This document shows, in pieces, positions 27,438-50,100 of a DNA stretch of 64,000 nt (positions are counted from its first letter, which is position 1; every line of letters begins with the position of its first letter). The stretch lies in the NCBI GenBank assembly GCA_951406725.2, contig OX597837.1, forward strand, positions 34,348,001-34,412,000. Direction: 5' to 3'. Origin of the DNA: Octopus vulgaris (taxonomy: Eukaryota). Under the pieces are notes generated by a model. The model saw only the letters and a program-made list of their open reading frames with translations. It did no database searches and was not told the DNA's origin. The position numbers and the translations under genes are program-made.

Positions 27438-28561
<1,124 letters not shown>

Positions 28562-33364: not shown

Positions 33365-36166
33365 CGACGGGCTTCTTTCACTTTCCGTCTACCAAATCCA
33401 CTCACAAGGCTTTGATTTGCCCAAGGCTACAGTAGAAGACACTCTCCCAAGGTGCCACACAGTGAGACTGAACCCGGAACCATGTGGTTGGTAAGCAAGC
33501 TACTTACCACACAGCCACTCCTGTGCCTATATGGTTGGATTAAACGCCAAAGAGTTGAATAAAACAAATTTACTAAAATAATTAAATGAAACCCAAGTAC
33601 CTGTACACTGGAGTAAATAAGTGTGGCTCATAAGAGGTTTTGGGCCAACAGTGTCCAGAAATTTGGTGTTGTACCTGAATATGAAGGAAAAGAAAAAAAA
33701 AAAGTCCACTAACCACATCGCTGACTTTGTCTTCATCTGATTCCTCTTCCTCTTCTGGAGAATCTTCCTTTGTATCTTCCTCAACCACCCTAGACTCTTC
33801 AGCTACCTGTGAGGGAATCTCATCACCCTGAAGAAAGCCAAAAAGGAACAGAAGTCTTTGTTGATAAATAAGAAACCAAGAATGAAACCTTTCCTGAAAG
33901 GTACCGGATTAAGGTACTTCATAAAAAAATAAATAATAAATGCACCCTTTTAAAGCCAAGCCAGGCTCATGGGCCCAGTTTCCCGGTTTCCATGGTGAAT
34001 GTGTTCCCCAGCTGGACGGGACGCCAGTCCATCGCAGCGTTACTCAAGAAACAGGAAGAAAGAGTAAGAGAAAGTTGGGGCAAAAGAGTACAACAGGGGT
34101 TGCCCACCCACCCCTCCCTACCAGAGCCTCATGGAGCATTGGGTGTTTTTGCTCAATAAACACACACAACGCCCGGTCTGGGAATTGAAACCGCGATCCT
34201 CCGACTGCAAGCTTGCTGCCCTAGCCACTGGGCCATTGTACCTCCACTGCGCCCTTTTAAAGCCTAGCCAGGCTCATGGGGCCCGGTTTCCCGGTTTCCA
34301 TGGCGTATGTGTTCCCCAGCTGGATGGGATGCTAGTCCATCGCAGCGTTACTCATTTTTGCCAGCTGAGTCGACTGGAGCAACATGAAATGAAGTGTTTT
34401 GCTCAAGAACACAAGTTACCTGGTGCAGGAATTGAAACCACAATCTTACGATCAGGAGTCCAACACCCTAACCACTAAGCTATGTGCCTCCATGGTAGAT
34501 ACACAGAGAAATAAAAAGAAAACGGAGGGAGGGAGGGAGAGTGATGGAGGCAGACAAAGAGAAGATAAAAAGAGACCATGAGTGACAGAGAAGAGTGGAG
34601 ACTGACAGAGACAAAGAGAGAGATAACATATTTTAACGTGTATAAGGAACCCTTTTTTGTCAAAAATTAGGTTAAAAAATATGGGAGTTTCTTAAACATG
34701 GATAGTATTATAATCTCTTAAACCTTTTTTCCAAATTTTAAGCTCCCAAAATTAGGGGGTTCCTTATATACAAGGGTTTCTTATACAGGTTTAAATATGG
34801 TGAATATTATGAACAAACCATTAAATTTCTGTTTTTGAGGACTCCAATCATATAACCCTCTTCGCATTTGTTCATGGACAGCATCACCTTCACACGGCAC
34901 ATCAACTGTTCAAGACTTCTCTTAACGCAAGGTATTTGGTTTGTTAGGCACACACTCTTCACAATCTGTAAAATAACAGTAGTAGTAGTTATGGGGGATG
35001 TAAACAAACAAATACCAGTCTTCATGTAGTGGTGGGAGACAAACACAAACACAGATATATGTTTATATATATATATAAGATAGGCTTCTTTCAGTTTCTT
35101 GTTTCTTTACTGCCCACAAGGGGCTACACACAGAGGGGACAAACAAGGACAGACAAATGGATTAAGTCGATTATATTGACTCCAGTGCATAACTGGTACT
35201 GATTAATTGAGCAAATCTTTCAGTCAACACCCAGCAGGAAAAAATGAAGAAAAAATAAAAGAAAAAATGAGAAAATGGAGGAAAAATAAAAGAAAAAATG
35301 AAGGAAAAAAATGGAGAAAATGGAGGAAAAACAATGAAGGAAAAATAAAAGAAAAAAATGAAGGAAAAAAATGGAGAAATAAAAGAAAAAAATGAAGGAA
35401 AAAAATGGAGGAAAAACAATGAAGGAAAAATAAAAGAAAAAATTAAGGAAAAATAAAAGAAAAAATTAAGGAAAAAAATGAAGGAGAAAATGGAGGAAAA
35501 ACAATGAAGGAAAAAAATGAAGGAGAAAATGGAGGAAAAACAATGAAGGAAAAAAATGGAGAAAATGGAGGAAAAACAATGAAGGAAAAATAAAGGAAAA
35601 AAATGAAGGAGAAAATGGAGGAAAAACAATGAAGGAAAAATAAAAAGAATTAAGGAAAAATGAAGGAAAAAAGTTATTTGATAGAAATAAAGTTGAGAAA
35701 GTTCTAGTTACCTTGGAGTGATTGCAGATGTGATGTAACGAGCGTGTACTTAATTGCATGCTCTTCAGTAATCCATGGATGTTTTCATGCTGGCTGCGAT
35801 ACATAATGTCAAGGAGGGGCATCGCTTGCAGGGTAAAGGCATCCACAAACATACGACCAGCCTGGAAAAGAGGGGACAAAAAAAAAAGGGAAAAATATAT
35901 ATAAAACAGATGAATATTAAGTACATGTAAAGAAGACAGTAAAAATAAGCAGGAGAATGTTCCTTTGATTTCAATAATGGCCGTTCCAGTTGTCTAGGCA
36001 ACTGGAACCACCAAAAAAATATTGTCCCTATCAGCACCATCGACCCTGAAAGGATGAAAAGCAAAGTCAAACCCCAGCAGAATTTGAACTCAGAATGTAA
36101 AGACAGACGAAAAATGCCGCTTAGCATTTTGCCTGGCATGCTTATGATTCAAACCAGCTTGCTGCC

Positions 36167-36198
<32 letters not shown>

Positions 36199-39100
36199 CT
36201 TCATTGTTTAACCTCTGCCTTCCATGCTGGCATGGGTGGGACAGTTTGACAGGAGCCTGCACCAGACTTCTGTGTCTGTTTTGGCAGGGTTTTTACAGCT
36301 GGATGCCCTTCCTAACACCAACCACTCAGTAGAGTGGACTCGTGCTTTTTACGTGACACAAGCACAGGTGAGGTCAGTTTTGGCAAGGTTTTTACAGCTG
36401 GATGCCCTTCCAAATGCTAACCACATTGCAGTGTGGACTGGATGCTTTCTAAGTGGCACCAGCACTTGCAAGACAAAGATCCTTTGAGAGAAGAGGGTGT
36501 ATTAGAGGACGTAATAATGATGATGATGATGATAAATCGAGAGTAGTGTGTTGGCATAATCGTAAGAGCTTCAGATGAGAAGCCTTGCAATATTTATTGT
36601 GGCTCTTAGTGTTGTGAGTTCAAATCCCACTCTGGCTTTTATGGGTGACAGACTTAATTCTGTCTCTTCGTTTAACCCCACCCCCTGATCACCCAGGGTA
36701 TCTTTACTGGCCACCACACTATTTCAAGCATTCAGGGGCCAGGCCTCTGGTTTGAGGATATATTCCTCCTTCCCAGTATCAGACATTCAGTGAAGGGTCA
36801 CGTGCACTGCATATTCCCTCTTGACTGAAAGATAAAAAAAACAACAAAACAACTGGCTGAGTACACCACAGACAAACATACATCCATAACACAATCTTCA
36901 GATGGAATTAACATGAGAGACATTGTGACAAGAGTGCTTATAGTAATTACTAGCTGACTCTGGCCATCAAAAATGACGGCTAATTGTAGTATTTTATATA
37001 TAAATATGGATGGTAAATCAAATTAATACACTTATCAATGTTATCTAGTAGTTGTCTTTTGAAGTGAGACATCGATTATCGTTTGTTACTGAAAGAACAC
37101 TGGCTTACACACACCAACATTCACATACTTCTCTTGTATACACACACACAGTTGAAACGCTGTTTGATTTTTCCTTTCAGTACTGAATGTTCACCATCCC
37201 ACTTCCATTGCACACACACCCACACACAGAGTTGAAACGTTCCTACTACCAGTTTGCCATCACCCCTCCCTTTCTCATTCATCTGTTGTGACGGAGAAAA
37301 ACACGAGTATTATTATAGTAGATATAATAAACACACATACATGCTTGCACATAATGAGATAGATCATCATCATCATCATTTAATGTTTGTTTTTCTATGC
37401 TGGCATGGGTTGGCCTGCATGACAGGAGCTTGCAAGCCGGACAGCTGCACCAGGCACCAACCATTTATTCTAGCAACGTTTCTATGGCTGGATGCCCTTC
37501 CTAACACCAACCACTTCATAGATTGCATTGGATCCTTTTTATGTAGCACCAGTGCAGGGTTTTTTTTTTTTTACTTGGCACCAACACCTGTGAGCCTGCA
37601 AAATAAGGACCTATCAACTGAGGTCTGTATAATTTGGCCCCTACCTTTAACGAGGTCCCTAGATTTGGAAAGCCATAAAATTTCTGAAACAGAAAATAAA
37701 AATAAGGACCTCTCAACTGAGGTCTAAAAAATTTGTATAATTTGGCCCCTACCTTTGGAAAACCATAACATTTCTGAAACAGAAAATAAAAATAGGGACC
37801 TCTCAACTGAGGTCTAGAAAATTTGTATAATTTGGCCCCTACCTTTGGAAAACCATAAAATTTCTGAAACAGAAAATAAAAATAGGGACCTCTCAACTGA
37901 GGTCTAGAAAATTTGTATAATTTGGCCCCTACCTTTGGAAAACCACAATTTCTAAAACAGAAAATAAAAATAGGGACCTCTCAACTGAGGTCTAGAAAAT
38001 TTGTATAATTTGGCCCCTACCTTTGGAAAACCATAAAATTTCTGAAACAGAAAATAAAAATAGGGACCTCTCAACTGAGGTCTAGAAAATTTGTATAATT
38101 TGGCCCCTACCTTTAATGCAGTCCCTAGATTTGGAAGGCCATCAAATTTCTGAAACAGGAAATAAAGATTATTACACAAATGAGAGAGAGAGAGAGAGAG
38201 AGAATAAATGAAAGTGTAGTTAGTGGTAATAGTAGTGGTGGCGGTAGGAGTAGATGCTAGAAAGCAGAGCTCTAGAAGGAAGTCCAAGCCCAACAATTAC
38301 TTTCAAAAGAGAAAGTATTTAGATTTATTTAGGTTGTTCATTAATTACTGTAACGAGAGTCATTAAGCAATTACTCTACACTGTCACCAAATTATTAATA
38401 TGACCATCATCATCATCATCACTTCATTTCCAACTTCCATGCTGGCATAGGTTGGACCAAATTACTTACAAACATTTTACAGTCTAGGCACAATCCCTCT
38501 CTCTCTCTCATTATTTGTTTCAAATTTTGGCACAAGGCCAGCAATTTCAGGGGAGGGAGTAAGTCATTTACATCAAACCCTAGTCATTAACTGGTACTTA
38601 TTTCATCAACTCTAAAAGGGGATTAAAGGCAAAGTCGGCCATGGTGGGATTTGAACTCGGAATATAAGGAATGAAATGCCTTTGAGCATTTCGCCTGGTG
38701 TGTTAACAGTTGTACAAGCTCACTGCCTTTCCCTTAATTTGGTTTTGTAACTTCCTGTTCTGTTTAGTTCATTCTCGAGAACAGGGGACACGTGGGAGGG
38801 AAGAGTCGCTGAAGAGGTCACAGGTGTGTGACAAAAGATTTCCAAACAAAGCATACAATAATAAATGAGTGAAAAATAAATATATATATTTGGCAAGAAC
38901 CCCCCCCCCCCCAAAAAAAAACAACGACCATCTTGAAATATAACAATAGATGATGTGATTGTTTATTTTTAGAATGACATTGTAGGGTAGGCGTGAGAGG
39001 ATGGACCTGGTCAGTTTGAACATAAAACGGGAAGAATATTTGGGTCCAGATATGACCAGTTTAAATGCCAAAGGGTTAATCTTGGGCAGCACTCACGTAG

Positions 39101-41753
39101 ATCCCTTAAAATTTGCCCCAGTTTTTGGGTTCCACTATCAATGGGGATCTCTTCTAGTGAAAGTTCATCCTTAAAATTGCTAAGAATACTTTATAATGAC
39201 TGACCCCTTCTCTTCAGCCCTCAGAACTGTTACTGATACTTTATAAAACTCTGATGAGACCCACAATGGGATGCTGATGCTACTACACACACACACATAT
39301 ACGCATGTACCATAGGCTTCCTTATAGTTTCCATCTACCAAATTCCACTCACATGGTATTGGCCAACCTGATACCACAACTATTGCTACTATTACCACCA
39401 CCACCACCACTACAATCACTACCACTGCTGTTGCTGCTACTACTACTACTGCTACTAAAAACACCACTACTGTTATTATTATTCAAAACAACAATAATTA
39501 CCTTAATGAGTGTCGTTAAAATCTGAAATATCCGGACTGCTAAATTCCATTGAAGAATTTTGTCATTTTTTGCCTAAAATAAAAATAACAACAAAACAAA
39601 AATAAATATACAAAAGCAAAATATATATAAATATAAAACAAACATAGGCGCAGGAGTGGCTGTGTGGTAAGTAGCTTGCTTACCAACCACACGGTTCCGA
39701 GTTCAGTCCCACTGCGTGGCACCTTGGGAAAGTGTCTTCTACTATAGCCTCGGGCCGACCAATGCCTTGTGAGTGGATTTGGTAGACGGAAACTGAAAGA
39801 AGCCTGTCGTACATATGTATATATATATATATATGTATGTGTGTGTTTGTGTGTCTGTGTTTGTTCCCCTAGCATTGCTTGACAACCGATGCTGGTGTGT
39901 TTACATCCCCGTCACTTAGCGGTTTGGCAAAAAGAGACCGATAGAATAAGTACTGGGCTTACAAAAAGAATAAGTTCCGGGGTCGATTTGCTCGATTAAA
40001 GGTGGTGCTCCAGCATGGCCGCAGTCAAATGACTGAAACAAGTAAAAGAGTAAATACCTTTAACCCTTTCGTTATTTTATTTATTTTGAGATGCTCTGTG
40101 TTTCTTTCAATTAATTTTAAATATAACAAAGAATTTAGTAAAATAACTCAGTTATCATTAAGCTGGTGTTAGGAACATAAATTGTGACTAAGGTCTGGTG
40201 GAAGATTTTAATCCAATACTTATGGAAACTAGACATTTGTACTACAGAGCCAGAGGCGGTTTCAGCCAGGTTGGTAACGAAAGGGTTAAGTGAAGCTATA
40301 TAAGAAAGAAAGAAAGAATGATTTTATTGCTGTTGAGGTCATCTTCACCTTTCATATCTTCAACATCAATATTAATGGGACCTGTGGAAATTCCACAAAG
40401 CGAAAAAGATTAACCCTTTTGTTACAATATTTCTGTTGAGATGCTCTGTGTTTCTTTCAATTACTTTAAATATAACAAAGAATTTAGTAAAATAACTTAG
40501 TTATCATTAAGCTAGTGTTAGGAACATAAATTGTGACTAAGGTTTGGTGGAAGATTTTAATTCAAAACTTGTGAAAACAAGACATTTTTACTCAGACCCA
40601 GAGCTGGTTTCAGCCAGGTTGGTATCGAAAGGGTTAAAATAGAACAAAACTAAAAATATATTTCCTTCCTCCGCATCCATCACTTTTTGTTTTGGTTTCC
40701 TCGCTTAGCGGTTCGGCAAAAGAGACCGATAGAATAAGTACTGGGCTTACAAAGAATAAGTCCCGGGGTCGATTTGCTCGACTAAAGGCGGTGCTCCAGC
40801 ATGGCCACAGTCAAATGACTGAAACAAGTAAAAGAGTAAATAAAGAACAGGAACAATGGTTTGAGATTAAAGGAATTGGCTGGACCCCTAAACCAACCAC
40901 CCAGCCAGCCAGCCTCACTCCTTTAATTTATACACTTGCTCCCACCATATTCTTAGACTTTAGTCATTAGCTTGACACAGTGCATCTTTAAATTTAAATA
41001 TTGCCCCTTTTCTTTAAATTATGGTTCAGGGTTGAAACACCCGATGAATGTTGGATACCGTCTGACATCAGTACCTTCTGGCCAAAGCTCCATTCACTTT
41101 GACGAGTGTTAAAGAAGCGCCTTCTTGGAGTTCTCAATAACAAATCCACTCCCTTTCTACAATTGAAAACCCCTTTCCCCACCATTTCAATCCCACCGGA
41201 TTGCAGAGAGAAGGGATGGCAGTCATGGCTTTCTCCAGTTGAGGTTAGCTGTAGGGAACCCCTGGCCTAGTCAGTATGAAGGAGGATGCTTACAGACATT
41301 GGAACAAGAGGAAAAAGAGTGAAGGATGTCTGTGAGTGGGATGGGAGAAGCAGCAGAAAGAACCCCTTGCTTATGGAACAGGTGAGAGGAGTTGAGATGG
41401 AAACCAGGAGGAGATGATGAGCAGTGAGGTGGCCACCACTGCTGACCCTTTAATGGGAGGGTGTTACGGTTCAGGATTGAAACTGCTTGTCATCATTGGA
41501 TACTGGTCTGGTGACATCAATTCCTCCTGGCCAAAACTCTATTCACTCAGGTGAGTAGATAAGGAGCATCTAAGAGTTACTAATAATATATATACAAACA
41601 TATATATCAGCATCATCATCATTTAATGGGTTTTCCATGCTGGCATGAGTTGGACGGTTTGACTGAAAGCTGGGGAGTTGCACTAGGTTTCAATCTGATT
41701 TGGCATGGTTTCTATAGCTGGATGCCCTTCCTAATGCCAACCACTCCAAGAAT

Positions 41754-44174: not shown

Positions 44175-47100
44175 ATATGTTTGTGTGTCTGTGTTTGTCC
44201 CCCCAACATCACTTGACAACCAGTGCTAGTGTGTTTACATCCTCGTAACTTAGCAGTTCGTAAAAAAGAGACCAATAGAAAAAGTATTAGGCTTACAAAG
44301 AATAAGTCCTGGGGTTGATTTGCATGACTAAAAGGGGATGCTCCAGCATGGCCACAGCCAAATGACTGAAACAAGTAACAGCGTATATATGTATGTGTGT
44401 GTATGTAAATATATATTTTATTTAACTAGTATAAGAAATGAGGTGACAGTGACTTCGAAGCTTTGACCTTCTAGCCTTCATCAGACTGTCTGAATGTGGT
44501 GGGGGTGGTGGTCATGGGGCCAGAGTGGGTCTCCTTGTCTTGACATCTCATGATAGATGTAAACAAGCAATGTTTGTTTCTAGTTTCCTGTGAAAAACAT
44601 GTCTAGCCTTGTGGAAACATTACCCTATTTGAATGCAGTTGAAGGTTGGTGCCAGGAAGAACATCCAGCAACACAAAGTCTACCAGAACAGATTCTGCCT
44701 GAAAGGAAAGTGGATGTCAAAATGATGCTGATACACACAACAGACAAAAACTGTGCCAGTGCCACACTATGGACACTCATGCTGGTGCCATGTATAAAGC
44801 ACCCAGTACACTCTGTAAAGTGGTTGGCATTAGGAAGAGTATCCAGCCATAGAAACCATGCCAAAACAGACAAATGGGGCCTGGGGTGGTTCTCTGGCTT
44901 GCCAGCTCCTGTCAGACTATCCAACCTATGCCATCATGGAAAATGGATTCTAAATGATTATGATGATGATGATACAGCTATTGGTGAATGAACAGAGACA
45001 ATATAGGGTAGAGAGGACTCTTTTGCTTTGCTGGGGCCAAGACGGCCTCTCTAATGTTGGTGCCATGATAAAATGCAGCCAATACATTCTGTAAAGTGGT
45101 TGTCATGAAGAAGGGCACCCAGACATAGAAATGAACCCAAAGATGAAATCCATGAGTGAGATGTGGGTCTCTAACTCATCTAAAAGAGCAGTAACTTCCC
45201 CAAAAATACTGAGATGGGCAGTGATGACCTGTTCAAGGGGCTAATGCAGTTTGTCACCTCTCCTTGAAAAATGCAGTTTTTTGAAAAAGTTTTTCTGGAT
45301 TTTAGGTTATGAATAAGCCCCAAATTTTTTTTGCCCCACACCCACCAATTAAAAAAATATTTTTTTTTACATATTCATAATTTAAAATGCAGGAATCCGG
45401 AAAAATTGAAAAAAAAAACTGCATTAGTGTTCTGTTCAACCAATCCATACCACAACATAGAAAGAGGATGTAAAATGATGATGATGATGATGATGAGCAG
45501 CAATTAAGCTTTTGTTTATTTAATGTAGGAAACATCGAAGAAAAACAATAACAAGACAATTAGGCAGAGTGGGAAATCCACTTGGCCCAGTGACTAATAA
45601 ATTTCATTATTTGAGCAATAAAATGTGGGGGGGGGGGGTGAGAGAGAAAAAAGAGAGAATGAATTTTTTAAACAGTGATGCTTTGATGACATTCCTTAGA
45701 AACAAATTAATTTTGTAGTTTTTGAAGGCAAATGAGATAAAATATGTGTTAACGACAGGAAGCATATTTATGCCAGAAGAATAAGTATTTGTCTCACCCA
45801 TGCAAGACACACTCATTCATATGTGCACACTGACAATGTTCGTCCAACAGAGCATGCTGGTTTCATTTCTTTCACTGCCATGTAGCATAGCTGTTTGTAT
45901 ACAGGCCATCATAACAACGCTACATGGCAGTGAAACATGGGCTTAACTGCAGAGGACATGCAAAGGCTTAATGTCTGGAAATAAAAGAGTTGACATCCAA
46001 TAATACCGGAGTTGACATCTGGTAACGACAGAGTTGACATCGAGTAATGACGGAGTTGACATTTAAAAATGATATGGTTGACCTCTGTTAATGGAAAGAC
46101 AGGTGTAAAACAAATGAAATTACAGGAGATAATGCCGGTCATGTTTATGAGGTTTAGTGGTTGGGGTGTTGGACTTACAAGTGTAAGATTGTGGTTTTAA
46201 TTCCTGGACGGGGCAACGCATTGCGTTCTTGAGCAAAACACTTCATCTCACGTTGCTCCACCCACTCAGCTGGCAAAAGTGAGTGACCCTGTGAAGGACT
46301 GGCGTCCCATCCAGGTGAGGAATTTATATGCAATGGAAACCAGGAAACTGAACCTTATGAGTCAGTATGACTCAAGAAGACAACTTTACTTTTTACCTTC
46401 TGATAGGACTCCATGGAAGAAAGGCCCGAGGACTCTACCCCTCCCCCCTCCAGGAATAGTAGATGGGCATGTTTTGGTTTTATTATGACCTCATCAGCAA
46501 AGCAGAGACTTTACCCTATTGGCTGAAGTAAGTGTATGTTAGCCGGCAAAGGAAACCAGGATAGTTTAGGGGATTTAATACTCGGAGTTTGTAAGGGTCC
46601 AGTCAGTGTTTCAACCAGGAGAGCCAAAGAAAGGACTGCAAATATTTGATAGGTTCTGTTTTAACAAGAAAATACATACACACACACAAAATCCCTTCCA
46701 GTCCCTTTGAATTTCAAATTACAATCACAAGCTTGGTACTTTAACCATTTAGCCATGCGCCCCTTTCATTCATTCATTCTTACATACATGGCGATGTGCT
46801 GTGCTTGAGAGGACCGGACAAGCCAAGTGAAATCATAGTCGCGGTAACTGGCACCCATGCTGGTGGCATGTGAAGAATGCCTTTTGTGCATCGGGCCTCA
46901 CAGAGGCGAAGTGGCTGAGTTCCTTTTGAGTGTTGGGCCTCACGGAGGCAATGACTGAGAGACCTTTGGCATTAGAAGAAAAACCATTAAGCTGAGCAAA
47001 ATCACAGTTGTGGCAGATACTGGTGTCACGCAAATGGCACATGTGCCGGTGGGATGTAAAAGCACTCATATCATTCTCAGAATGGTTGGCTTTAGGAAGG

Positions 47101-50100
47101 GCATCCAGCTGTAGAAAACCATGCCAAATCGGACTGGAATCTGGCGCAGCCTTCCAGCTTACCAGCCCTGGTCAAACCATCCAACCCATACCAGCATGGA
47201 CAACAGAGATTTGGTGATGATGATGATGATGATACATGCATGCATGGCACTCGGCTGGTCACGACAACGAAGGTTCCAGTTGATTGATTCAATGGAACAG
47301 CCTGCTTGTGAAATTAACGTGCAAGTGGCTGAGTACTCCACAGACATGTGTACCCTTAATGCAGTTCTCAGGGAGATTCAGCATGACATAGAGTTTGACA
47401 AGGCTGGCCCCTTTGAATTACAGGTACACCTCAACTTTACCAGCTGAGTGAACTGGAGCAATAAGGTGAAATAAAGTAACTTGTTCAAGGACACAATTCC
47501 TGTTGCCAGGAATTGAACTCCTGGCCTTACGACTGTGAGTCGAATACCCGAACCATTAAGCCATGCAGCTTTGCTAACATGGGTAGAGATAGAAGCATGA
47601 ATATATAATGAATATCAGCCATGCGATTATGGCTGGGTGGTTGGCACCCCAGTCTACTGAGCTGTTTGTATACAGGCCATCATAGGTACGCTACATGGCA
47701 GTGAAACATGGGCTTAACTGCAGAGGACATGCAAAGGCTTAATATCTGGAAATAAAAGAGTTGACATCGAATAATACCGGAGTTGACATCTGGTAACGAC
47801 AGAGTTGACATCGGATAATGACGGAGTTGACATTTAAAAATGATATGGTTGACCTCTGTTAATAATGGGAACGGCAGCTGGAAATGGTACAGTTGATATC
47901 TGGAAACGCAGTACCATATTTGATGGAATAAAAGACATGCAGCTATATTAGATGCACCTGAATTTCAGAAGCACAAATTTATGGAAAAAGTTTTTAGTGC
48001 CTTACGGCTGGCATTTAAACCAGTCATATCTGGCCAAAATATTTTACCTGCTTGATATTCAAATTGGCCCGATCTGACCCCTCACACATACCCTACAATG
48101 TCATTCTAAAAATAAATTAATCACCATCATCATCATCATCATTTAATGTCTGTCTTCCATGCCGGCATGGGTGGAATAGTTTGACAAGAGCCGGCCAGGC
48201 AGAATCCTGCACCAGACTTCTGTGATTGTATTCGCAGGATTTTTACAGCTGGATGCCCTTTCTAACACCAACCACTCAGCAGAGTGGACTTAATGCTTTT
48301 TACGTGGCACAAGCATAGGCAAGGTCAGTTTTGACAAGGTTTTTACAGCTGGGTGCCCTTCCTAACACCAACCGCTCAGCATTGTGGACTCGCATCATCA
48401 AAATCTCGAAGCCATGAGATAATGGATGATTAATTCAGAACAATGTGGAATAACTAAAGATTACATTTGACAGAGTAAAACCTGAATGCTAAAGGGTTAA
48501 AGCTTAGTGGAGGGCCAACGTTGTGGGCCTGGGGTGGATTTTTGAGACTGGTTTTCTAAAAAAAAAAAAAAAAAAAAAAAAACCCCAAAAACCCTCCTAA
48601 AAAAACAAAAACAAAACAGTGTGTCTCATATGTCTGGAAATACAATTATGACTAGAAAAACAAAAAAACAAAACAAGACATGGTACTTACGTTGTGAGTG
48701 AGGGGTACATTTCTGATGTGTTGTCATCAGCGTTGAGCAGTTGAGGAATGGCATCGCTACACAGTTTCTCAATGGCATCCAAAGGACTTGGAGAGTAGGA
48801 GAGGTAGCATCTGTAATAGGGGAATGGGAAGGTTGCAGTAAGAGAGAGGGAGAGAGAGAGAATGTAATATATCTTTTACTTGTTTCAGTGTATACACATA
48901 CACACGCACACACATATATACACAAGGGTTGGACAAAATAATGGAAACACCTAGCATCATAATTTTGAAAAATCTAAAAAACCGTCAAAAAATAGCTAGT
49001 TTATTTTCATGTTTTTTGAGTTCTTATTAGTGTTGCTTAATATGTTTTGCTAAAATTGCTGTTTCTTTTTAGATATCATCAGAAAAAGGTAATTAAAATT
49101 CATTAAAATGACAGATCTATCAGACTTTCAAAGAGGTCAAATTGTTGGTGCTCGTATGGCAGGTGCTAGCATAACGAAAACAGCCAAAATGTTTGAAGTA
49201 CTGTCTCAAAAGTAATGACAACCTTTGAGAAAAAGGGAAAAACACTCCTTGTCGAAACAAAATTCTGGAAGAAAACCAAAACTTTCATAGGGACTGTGGG
49301 ATTCTTACGTGAATTGTTCAAAAGGATCACAAAAGTACAGCTCCCAAAATTACTGCAGAGCTTAACAACCACCTCAAGAACCCAGTTTCCACAGAAACTG
49401 TTTGCTGGGAGGTGCACAAAGCCAGATTTCACAGTGGGGGAGGGCTGCAATCAGAAAACCACTACTTTCAAAAACAAACAGTGCAAAGCATTTAGAATTA
49501 AGTAAAAACCTACAGAATTGGTCCTTAGAGCAGTGGAAGAATTTATTTTCTTGGACGAGTCATCCCTCTCTCTCTCTCTTTCGGAGAGGCACTGAACAGC
49601 TATACGTACACATACACATACGGCAGCAACTTCTGCCTACCGAATTCAATCACAAAGCTTTGGTCGACTCAGGGCTATAGTGGAAGACACCTGTCCAAAG
49701 TGCCACGCAGTGGGACTGAACCCGAAACCATGTAGTTAGGAAGCAAGCTCCCTAACCACACAGCCATGCCCGCGCCTACAAAAATGTATGCATATATGCA
49801 CAGCGCTATGCGTGTGGCAAGTTTTCTACGGCCGGATGCCCTTCCTGACACCAACCCCCACTTGTTGCCAAGCGAACCACCGGCCGAGTATACATGTGGA
49901 GACAGCCAAAAGAAGCATTTGACCCAGACTGCCTTATTCCAACTGTTACACATGGAGGAGGATCTGTGATGATCCAGGGGTGGGGTGGTGGTGCTATATC
50001 TTGGAAATCCACTGGCCCAATGGTTTCCCTTTATGGCAGAATTAATAGTCAAGATTATTTAAGCATTTTATCTCACCAAATTCATCCTACGGTTGCGGAA

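Follow-up and report, generated by a model that had tools for sequence, protein, structure and literature searches.

Several described systems bear comparison with the exon array analysed here. In CBS, a 31-bp VNTR is known, and a 68-bp duplicated junction still gives normal mRNA, one site being strongly preferred (PMC2630376). In ABCA7, one repeat unit of an intron 18 VNTR is retained as a minor event (PMC5954066). For mutually exclusive exons, a donor-branch point distance below 50 bp is a steric limit (PMC5740500), and most of the tandem events are described as ancient (PMC9741552). The exon-2 repeats of SmPoMuc in Schistosoma mansoni are units of about 1 kb that are spliced together into a repetitive mucin (PMC2576457). 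Finally, the neural microexons targeted by SRRM3/4 (eMIC) are enriched for a UGC motif near the acceptor (PMC10551640).

The window, i.e., the whole stretch of DNA that was analysed, comprises 64,000 nt of the Octopus vulgaris genome (contig OX597837.1 of assembly GCA_951406725.2, positions 34,348,001 to 34,412,000). On its minus strand are six head-to-tail copies of one FANCD2 exon, numbered here in transcript order, with lengths of 39, 21, 19, 21, 21 and 39 nt. Microexons are exons of about 27 nt or less. The features of the array and the two exons around it are the following:

39502-39573, minus strand: upstream FANCD2 exon of 72 nt in phase 0, which transcript contigs connect to copy 1.
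38150-38256, minus strand: native acceptor region of copy 1, with a 105-nt AG-free zone, a (TC)n tract and five predicted yUnAy branch-point candidates.
38111-38149, minus strand: copy 1, 39 nt, the exon used in mRNA, which encodes a three-residue turn and the first nine residues of a long helix.
38042-38110, minus strand: spacer 1, 69 nt, with a putative junction, at a TTATTT-like microhomology, between donor-side intron and a short acceptor.
38021-38041, minus strand: copy 2, 21 nt, with an 18-nt internal deletion, its use not seen in transcript contigs.
37933-37951, minus strand: copy 3, 19 nt, which would shift the frame and has private variants that were not seen in two DNA runs.
37843-37863, minus strand: copy 4, 21 nt, with the sequence of copy 2; DNA runs X5 and X19 contain its unit without a differing letter.
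37753-37773, minus strand: copy 5, 21 nt, with one substitution.
37645-37683, minus strand: copy 6, 39 nt, a full-length twin with three amino-acid changes in the window and none in X5.
37600-37644, minus strand: donor-side tail of copy 6 and end of the array, 9 nt shorter than the spacers and the same in X5 (no gaps).
35712-35861, minus strand: downstream FANCD2 exon, 150 nt, with a pyrimidine-rich acceptor, joined to copy 1 in transcript contigs.

The array shares traits with each of the systems above. As in ABCA7 (PMC5954066) and CBS (PMC2630376), a genuine splice site next to a coding exon is repeated in tandem and is mostly or wholly passed over; unlike in those genes as described, the FANCD2 unit contains a whole exon with its acceptor and donor. 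As in mutually exclusive exons, homologous exons stand in tandem, with short gaps near the steric limit (PMC5740500, PMC9741552). The like length and like phase by which such exons are recognised are shared by the two 39-nt copies (1 and 6) alone, the other four being 19-21 nt long. Unlike in mutually exclusive exons, four FANCD2 copies are truncated, and only copy 1 was seen spliced (in 2/2 runs by junction letters and 4/4 by depth, in contigs that may collapse an alternative of equal length). Four of the units are also nearly identical, unlike the events reported as mostly ancient (PMC9741552). The amplification of a small exon with flanking intron, head to tail in an invertebrate genome, recalls SmPoMuc (PMC2576457), but in FANCD2 the units are of 90-108 bp, the protein is rigid and helical, and a single copy enters the mRNA contigs. 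Like the microexons of SRRM3/4, the short copies are very short and mostly keep the frame (three of the four have 21 nt, one has 19 nt); unlike them, they have no UGC near their acceptors and no inclusion in contigs, and a conserved exon would be replaced by a deletion. A search that covered mainly literature outside subscription returned no relevant paper on the octopus FANCD2 locus, octopus microexons or octopus intronic minisatellites.

The genetic organisation of the array is very regular. Every copy is preceded by AG and followed by the donor AAG/GTAGGG, and five of the six have a length that is a multiple of three, which keeps the frame. The five spacers have 69 nt each and vary among themselves at only three positions. 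TRF reports a period of 90, 5.1 copies, 95% matches and a score of 846. A DNA search of the genome gave one matching locus for the array, and two spacer patterns searched in the same way gave five matches each, all inside it. We had considered the spacer as a dispersed repeat or MITE, which was rejected since both patterns match the array only. The window contains 16 exons of FANCD2, and the 39-nt exon is the only one that is duplicated there. The array is a minisatellite in the usual sense, i.e., a head-to-tail unit of 10-100 bp at a single locus, here with splice sites.

The initial annotation had read what looks like an intronic minisatellite as six copies of the exon, and their coordinates, lengths and peptides were all confirmed on the minus strand, together with AG and GT at 6/6 copies and the frame in 5/6. 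The acceptor that it gave, TTTCAG, holds except for copy 3, which ends in TTTTAG. It had also derived the 21-nt copies from the 39-nt exon by one 18-nt deletion between AAA triplets. The alignment shows this deletion between two AAA triplets in all of copies 2-5, copy 3 having an additional 2-nt loss, but the source was a copy-6-like unit and not copy 1, because exon positions 7 and 13 and the acceptor base at -10 are common to the short copies and copy 6. Since the units are about 95% identical and the short copies inherit one deletion, intact splice sites and frame are not independent signs of selection. Only about the last 17 nt of the native acceptor region of copy 1 are part of the duplication. 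These patterns support an origin by tandem exon duplication, deletion and amplification, as had been proposed. The first step would have been the duplication, at a T-rich microhomology, of a 108-bp unit made up of the exon with about 17 nt of acceptor before it and about 50 nt of intron on its donor side. One unit resembling copy 6 would then have been shortened to 90 bp by the loss of the 18 nt between AAA triplets, and this short unit would have multiplied to about four copies. Inverted repeats shared by exon and spacer may have assisted in this history.

Could such an array result from misassembly? A search for sequencing runs gave 24, all in the form of assembled contigs, of which six were used. 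Two of these are DNA runs from two studies (X5 and X19), and we compared them with positions 37595-38310. X5 may be the source of the window itself, which makes X19 the safer independent witness. Both contain the complete 90-bp unit with no differing letter, as 119 nt at depth 193.5 and a 31-nt piece at about 160 in X5 (the latter derived from depth bins) and as 120 nt at depth 46.8 in X19. One contig of X19 leads from copy 1 into the repeat and ends at 38085, and one of X5 leads from beyond 37595 through copy 6 into the repeat and ends at 37757. The contig ends (37757, 37995-38025, 38085 and 37818-37936) are the breaks of a simulated 31-letter graph of the window's array. The depth of the unit relative to its single-copy neighbours is 4.0 and 3.3 in X5 and 2.1-2.6 in X19, for predictions of 3.2 and 3 from the window, and these ratios fit about two to four short units. 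As contig depth is not copy number, they are at most a weak hint of length variation, and copy-number variation between individuals is only weakly hinted at.

The notion of an assembly artefact, or in its weaker form of a real array in which the private variants of copies 3, 5 and 6 are consensus errors, draws on two facts: no contig spans the whole array, and these private variants were not seen in X19 or in X5 (about 80% of which was read). The variants may be haplotype-specific, collapsed or consensus errors. Missing coverage over parts of the array carries no weight in these runs, given that the contigs are filtered and X5 was read to about 80%. The complete unit at 2.1-4.0 times the depth of single-copy neighbours in two studies, and the contigs that enter the repeat from copy 1 on one side and leave it into copy 6 on the other, make an artefactual array extremely improbable; the weaker form, with consensus errors in the private variants, may still apply. 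The initial annotation had named such an artefact as a way in which it could be wrong; the contigs of the two runs break where a real array predicts. In X19, no contig covers the array exit or copy 6 (37595-37810), and its 90-bp unit is not broken where the exit in the window would break it; the end of the array may differ in this run, or the record may be filtered.

The host gene is FANCD2, as had been annotated. The flanking exons match the Pfam family PF14631 (FancD2) and solved vertebrate FANCD2 chains, and a protein named as Octopus vulgaris FANCD2 maps exon by exon onto 16 exons of the window, passing through copy 1. The 13 residues of copy 1 are identical in records of O. sinensis and O. 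bimaculoides and near-identical in Argonauta and cuttlefish. A 13-residue segment matching copy 1 is present in 18 of 19 cephalopod proteins, the remaining one having no anchor.

To see which copy is spliced, we compared four transcript-like runs (X1, X8, X12 and X14, from four studies and under two organism labels) with positions 35690-39600, and X1 and X12 also with the array alone, the letters of the copies being known for these two only. The RNA status of these runs is a guess, none of the 24 being on record as RNA, and X12 is of unknown type; the contigs are nevertheless spliced. X1 and X12 each have a single FANCD2 contig on the array, of 4612 and 2416 nt respectively; it covers 38110-38151 and continues at its unmatched ends into the 72-nt and 150-nt exons. 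It carries the letters of copy 1, with one other letter in X1 and none in X12. Nothing in the contigs of these two runs falls on copies 2-6 when the array is compared alone, a comparison in which inclusion of 21 nt yields a match of only 24 nt, possibly too short to be placed. For the copy-1 bin, the depth expected from the main contig (its own depth multiplied by 40/131) is observed in all four runs (3.74/3.76, 5.48/5.50, 3.69/3.69 and 14.7/14.69), and the bin with copy 4 has depth zero in 4/4. Junctions from the 72-nt exon into each copy and on to the 150-nt exon, a mapping that the initial annotation had proposed for reads and that was run here on contigs, join copy 1 only. The dominant FANCD2 isoform uses copy 1, at the level visible in assembled contigs, which drop rare variants and in which a copy-6 path of equal length could collapse even if fairly common. 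Since the assembled spliced transcripts use copy 1 only, copies 2-6 are likely silent, which favours the second option of the initial annotation, that of exons kept silent. A table of joints, of which 15 of 256 were listed with none at the array, was not used, as dispersed repeats swamped the comparison.

The first option, an array of alternative exons and microexons, obtained no support. Under it, FANCD2 isoforms would arise from regulated inclusion of the 21-nt copies, as microexons or cassette exons, and from use of the 19-nt copy as a poison exon. All copies do keep AG and GT, three of the short ones keep the frame, and the bin of copies 2 and 3 has small signals in X8 (1.94) and X12 (0.92). 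In X8, the arithmetic permits a 24-nt piece at a depth of about 11. Yet no such junction was found in the transcript contigs. In X12, the main contig accounts fully for both flanking-exon bins, which leaves no room for an extra junction contig, and the signals of 0.92 and 2.24 in this run are thus not junction contigs. Larger signals in X1 (13.8) and X14 (12.1) would need depths of 53-75, far above those of their FANCD2 contigs, and the one in X1, non-FANCD2 noise in the bin next to that of copies 2 and 3, vanished in the comparison with the array alone. The UGC motif reported as enriched in SRRM3/4 targets (PMC10551640) is absent from the 30 nt next to the acceptor in all six copies. Copy 1, spacer 1 and copy 2 (38021-38149, minus strand) form a stop-free in-frame stretch of 129 nt, so that use of the copy 2 donor would insert 30 residues; this product is not seen in the contigs, and a stop-free spacer also arises in 22% of shuffles. 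Together with the conservation of protein spacing described next, these results render regulated microexons very improbable.

The 21-nt copies would cut six residues from a conserved helix. The region could be aligned in 143 of the best 150 homologues and is spanned in full by 129. Among the latter, the spacing is the same as with copy 1 in 97, longer by 1-6 residues in 26, extended by long insertions in 2, shorter by 1-3 residues in 3, and in one the 13 residues are missing; none of the 129 has the spacing of -6 that a 21-nt copy would give. Among the residues that the short copies lose are the conserved leucines at exon positions 8 and 12 (89 L and 19 I at position 8, 103 L at position 12). 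When the exon is placed on the model of a cephalopod homologue, its 13 residues close helix 222-248 with one residue, form a turn of three and open helix 252-280, to which the six lost residues belong (local pLDDT of 95-97). The model is that of the homologue and not of the protein of the window, with a mean pLDDT of 84.8; an earlier model (47.6) was dropped as low-confidence. A 21-nt copy in place of copy 1 would likely damage the fold. A search of the region for distant homologues gave only three proteins. The aligned protein without exactly these 13 residues, a distant FANCD2 homologue (P0039), suggests that the same small exon is skipped or was missed in that gene model. Another protein (P0046) has a 35-residue insertion right after the 13-residue segment.

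We thus favour the reading in which the array is a silent single-locus minisatellite built from a 39-nt exon and its splice sites, with mRNA using copy 1, and we consider it probable. If it holds, five copies with perfect AG and GT and identical donors are unseen in mRNA, so these dinucleotides and a kept frame do not predict exon use. Copies 2-6 would be pseudo-exons removed together with a 2.25-kb intron. What sets copy 1 apart may be that its original upstream intron is still in place, which holds for no other copy and provides a long AG-free zone as well as predicted branch-point candidates at a normal distance. Its AG-free zone has 105 nt vs 24 nt in the other copies, and it has five yUnAy candidates, including those at -32 and -71, the latter within a simple repeat; the others have one, at -14 from the AG. 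Being the only yUnAy of the spacer, this candidate is 56 nt away from the donor before it, close to the steric limit of under 50 bp used in PMC5740500. The predicted probability that the acceptor AG is unpaired is 0.24-0.28 for copy 1, as against 0.01-0.08 for the other five. The other copies would therefore be handicapped, by prediction, by a short AG-free zone, a close branch-point candidate, a hairpin-paired acceptor AG and gaps of 69 nt near the steric limit, and selection would also disfavour the short ones, which lose six helix residues. A short AG-free zone alone does not silence an exon, because one genuine FANCD2 acceptor in the window has a zone of 26 nt (two misplaced control acceptors were left out of this comparison).

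The donors barely separate the copies (unpaired probability of 0.20-0.32 in copy 1 vs 0.10-0.24 in the others). The idea that the lost 18 nt free the donor in the long copies by competing pairing is unsupported, positions +1 to +6 being paired in copy 1 too. The folding of the whole array (z of -2.27) was not used, as it is based on 20 shuffles only and on repeated sequence.

Copy 6 requires separate consideration. An X5 contig covers 37595-37757 at depth 47.9, without gaps and with seven letters that differ from the window. Five of the seven are listed, and all five are inside the 39-nt copy 6; spacer 5 and the tail of copy 6 match the window. The variants all lie within 27 nt and are thus linked by one 31-letter word. 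In X5, copy 6 encodes the exact peptide of copy 1, from which it differs by silent changes only, at exon positions 12, 13, 15 and 30. Among random sets of four changes, 0.27% keep the peptide (a simulation performed post hoc, on one run and one contig). Purifying selection on a twin exon could explain this pattern, as could a duplication that drew on two divergent working alleles, a conversion event or a sequence error in the window.

It raises the question of whether copy 6 is, or recently was, a working alternative to copy 1 with the same peptide and under purifying selection, with intact and decayed haplotypes and with silent short copies. Neutral decay would rarely hold the peptide despite four nucleotide differences, which speaks for such a twin. 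The argument comes from one run, one contig and a post-hoc test, however, and the mRNA contigs of X1 and X12 carry the letters of copy 1 and not the X5 variant; a copy of the X5 type may occur in the mRNA of X8 and X14. No contig of copy 6 was found in X19. The same picture would also arise, with copy 6 not in use today, from a duplication that drew on two divergent working alleles, from gene conversion or from a wrong consensus in the window. Templated changes are also conceivable, since 10 nt of copy 6 in the window form a perfect inverted repeat with the spacer. Between copies 1 and 6, divergence does not differ significantly between exon and flanks (Fisher p 0.45, from counts made by eye). 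On balance, we find a working alternative unlikely. It is similarly doubtful that the array contains a redundant twin of an essential exon, in which selection would have kept the peptide of copy 6 identical, some transcripts or animals would use copy 6 in place of copy 1, crippled copies of microexon size would expand between the two, and intact and decayed twins would segregate as alleles.

If the array is silent, as we favour, this is an ordinary outcome, and the locus is a small natural minigene in which one could study what elements upstream of a short exon define it. If instead copy 6 were a working twin, the locus would show a rarely seen early stage of a mutually exclusive pair in a core DNA-repair gene. 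Alleles would then differ in whether the spare exon works, i.e., the exon duplication would be caught between birth, backup and loss.

The window contains other repeats in and around FANCD2. Two near-identical tandem arrays with units of 22/44 bp (45986-46069 and 47757-47840) lie about 1.8 kb apart in one FANCD2 intron. A mixed TG/TA microsatellite of about 1.1 kb (27440-28561) begins about 0.8 kb beyond the stop codon of FANCD2. A repeat of about 410 bp is dispersed over many places between 15534 and 60879, with 78-92% identity.
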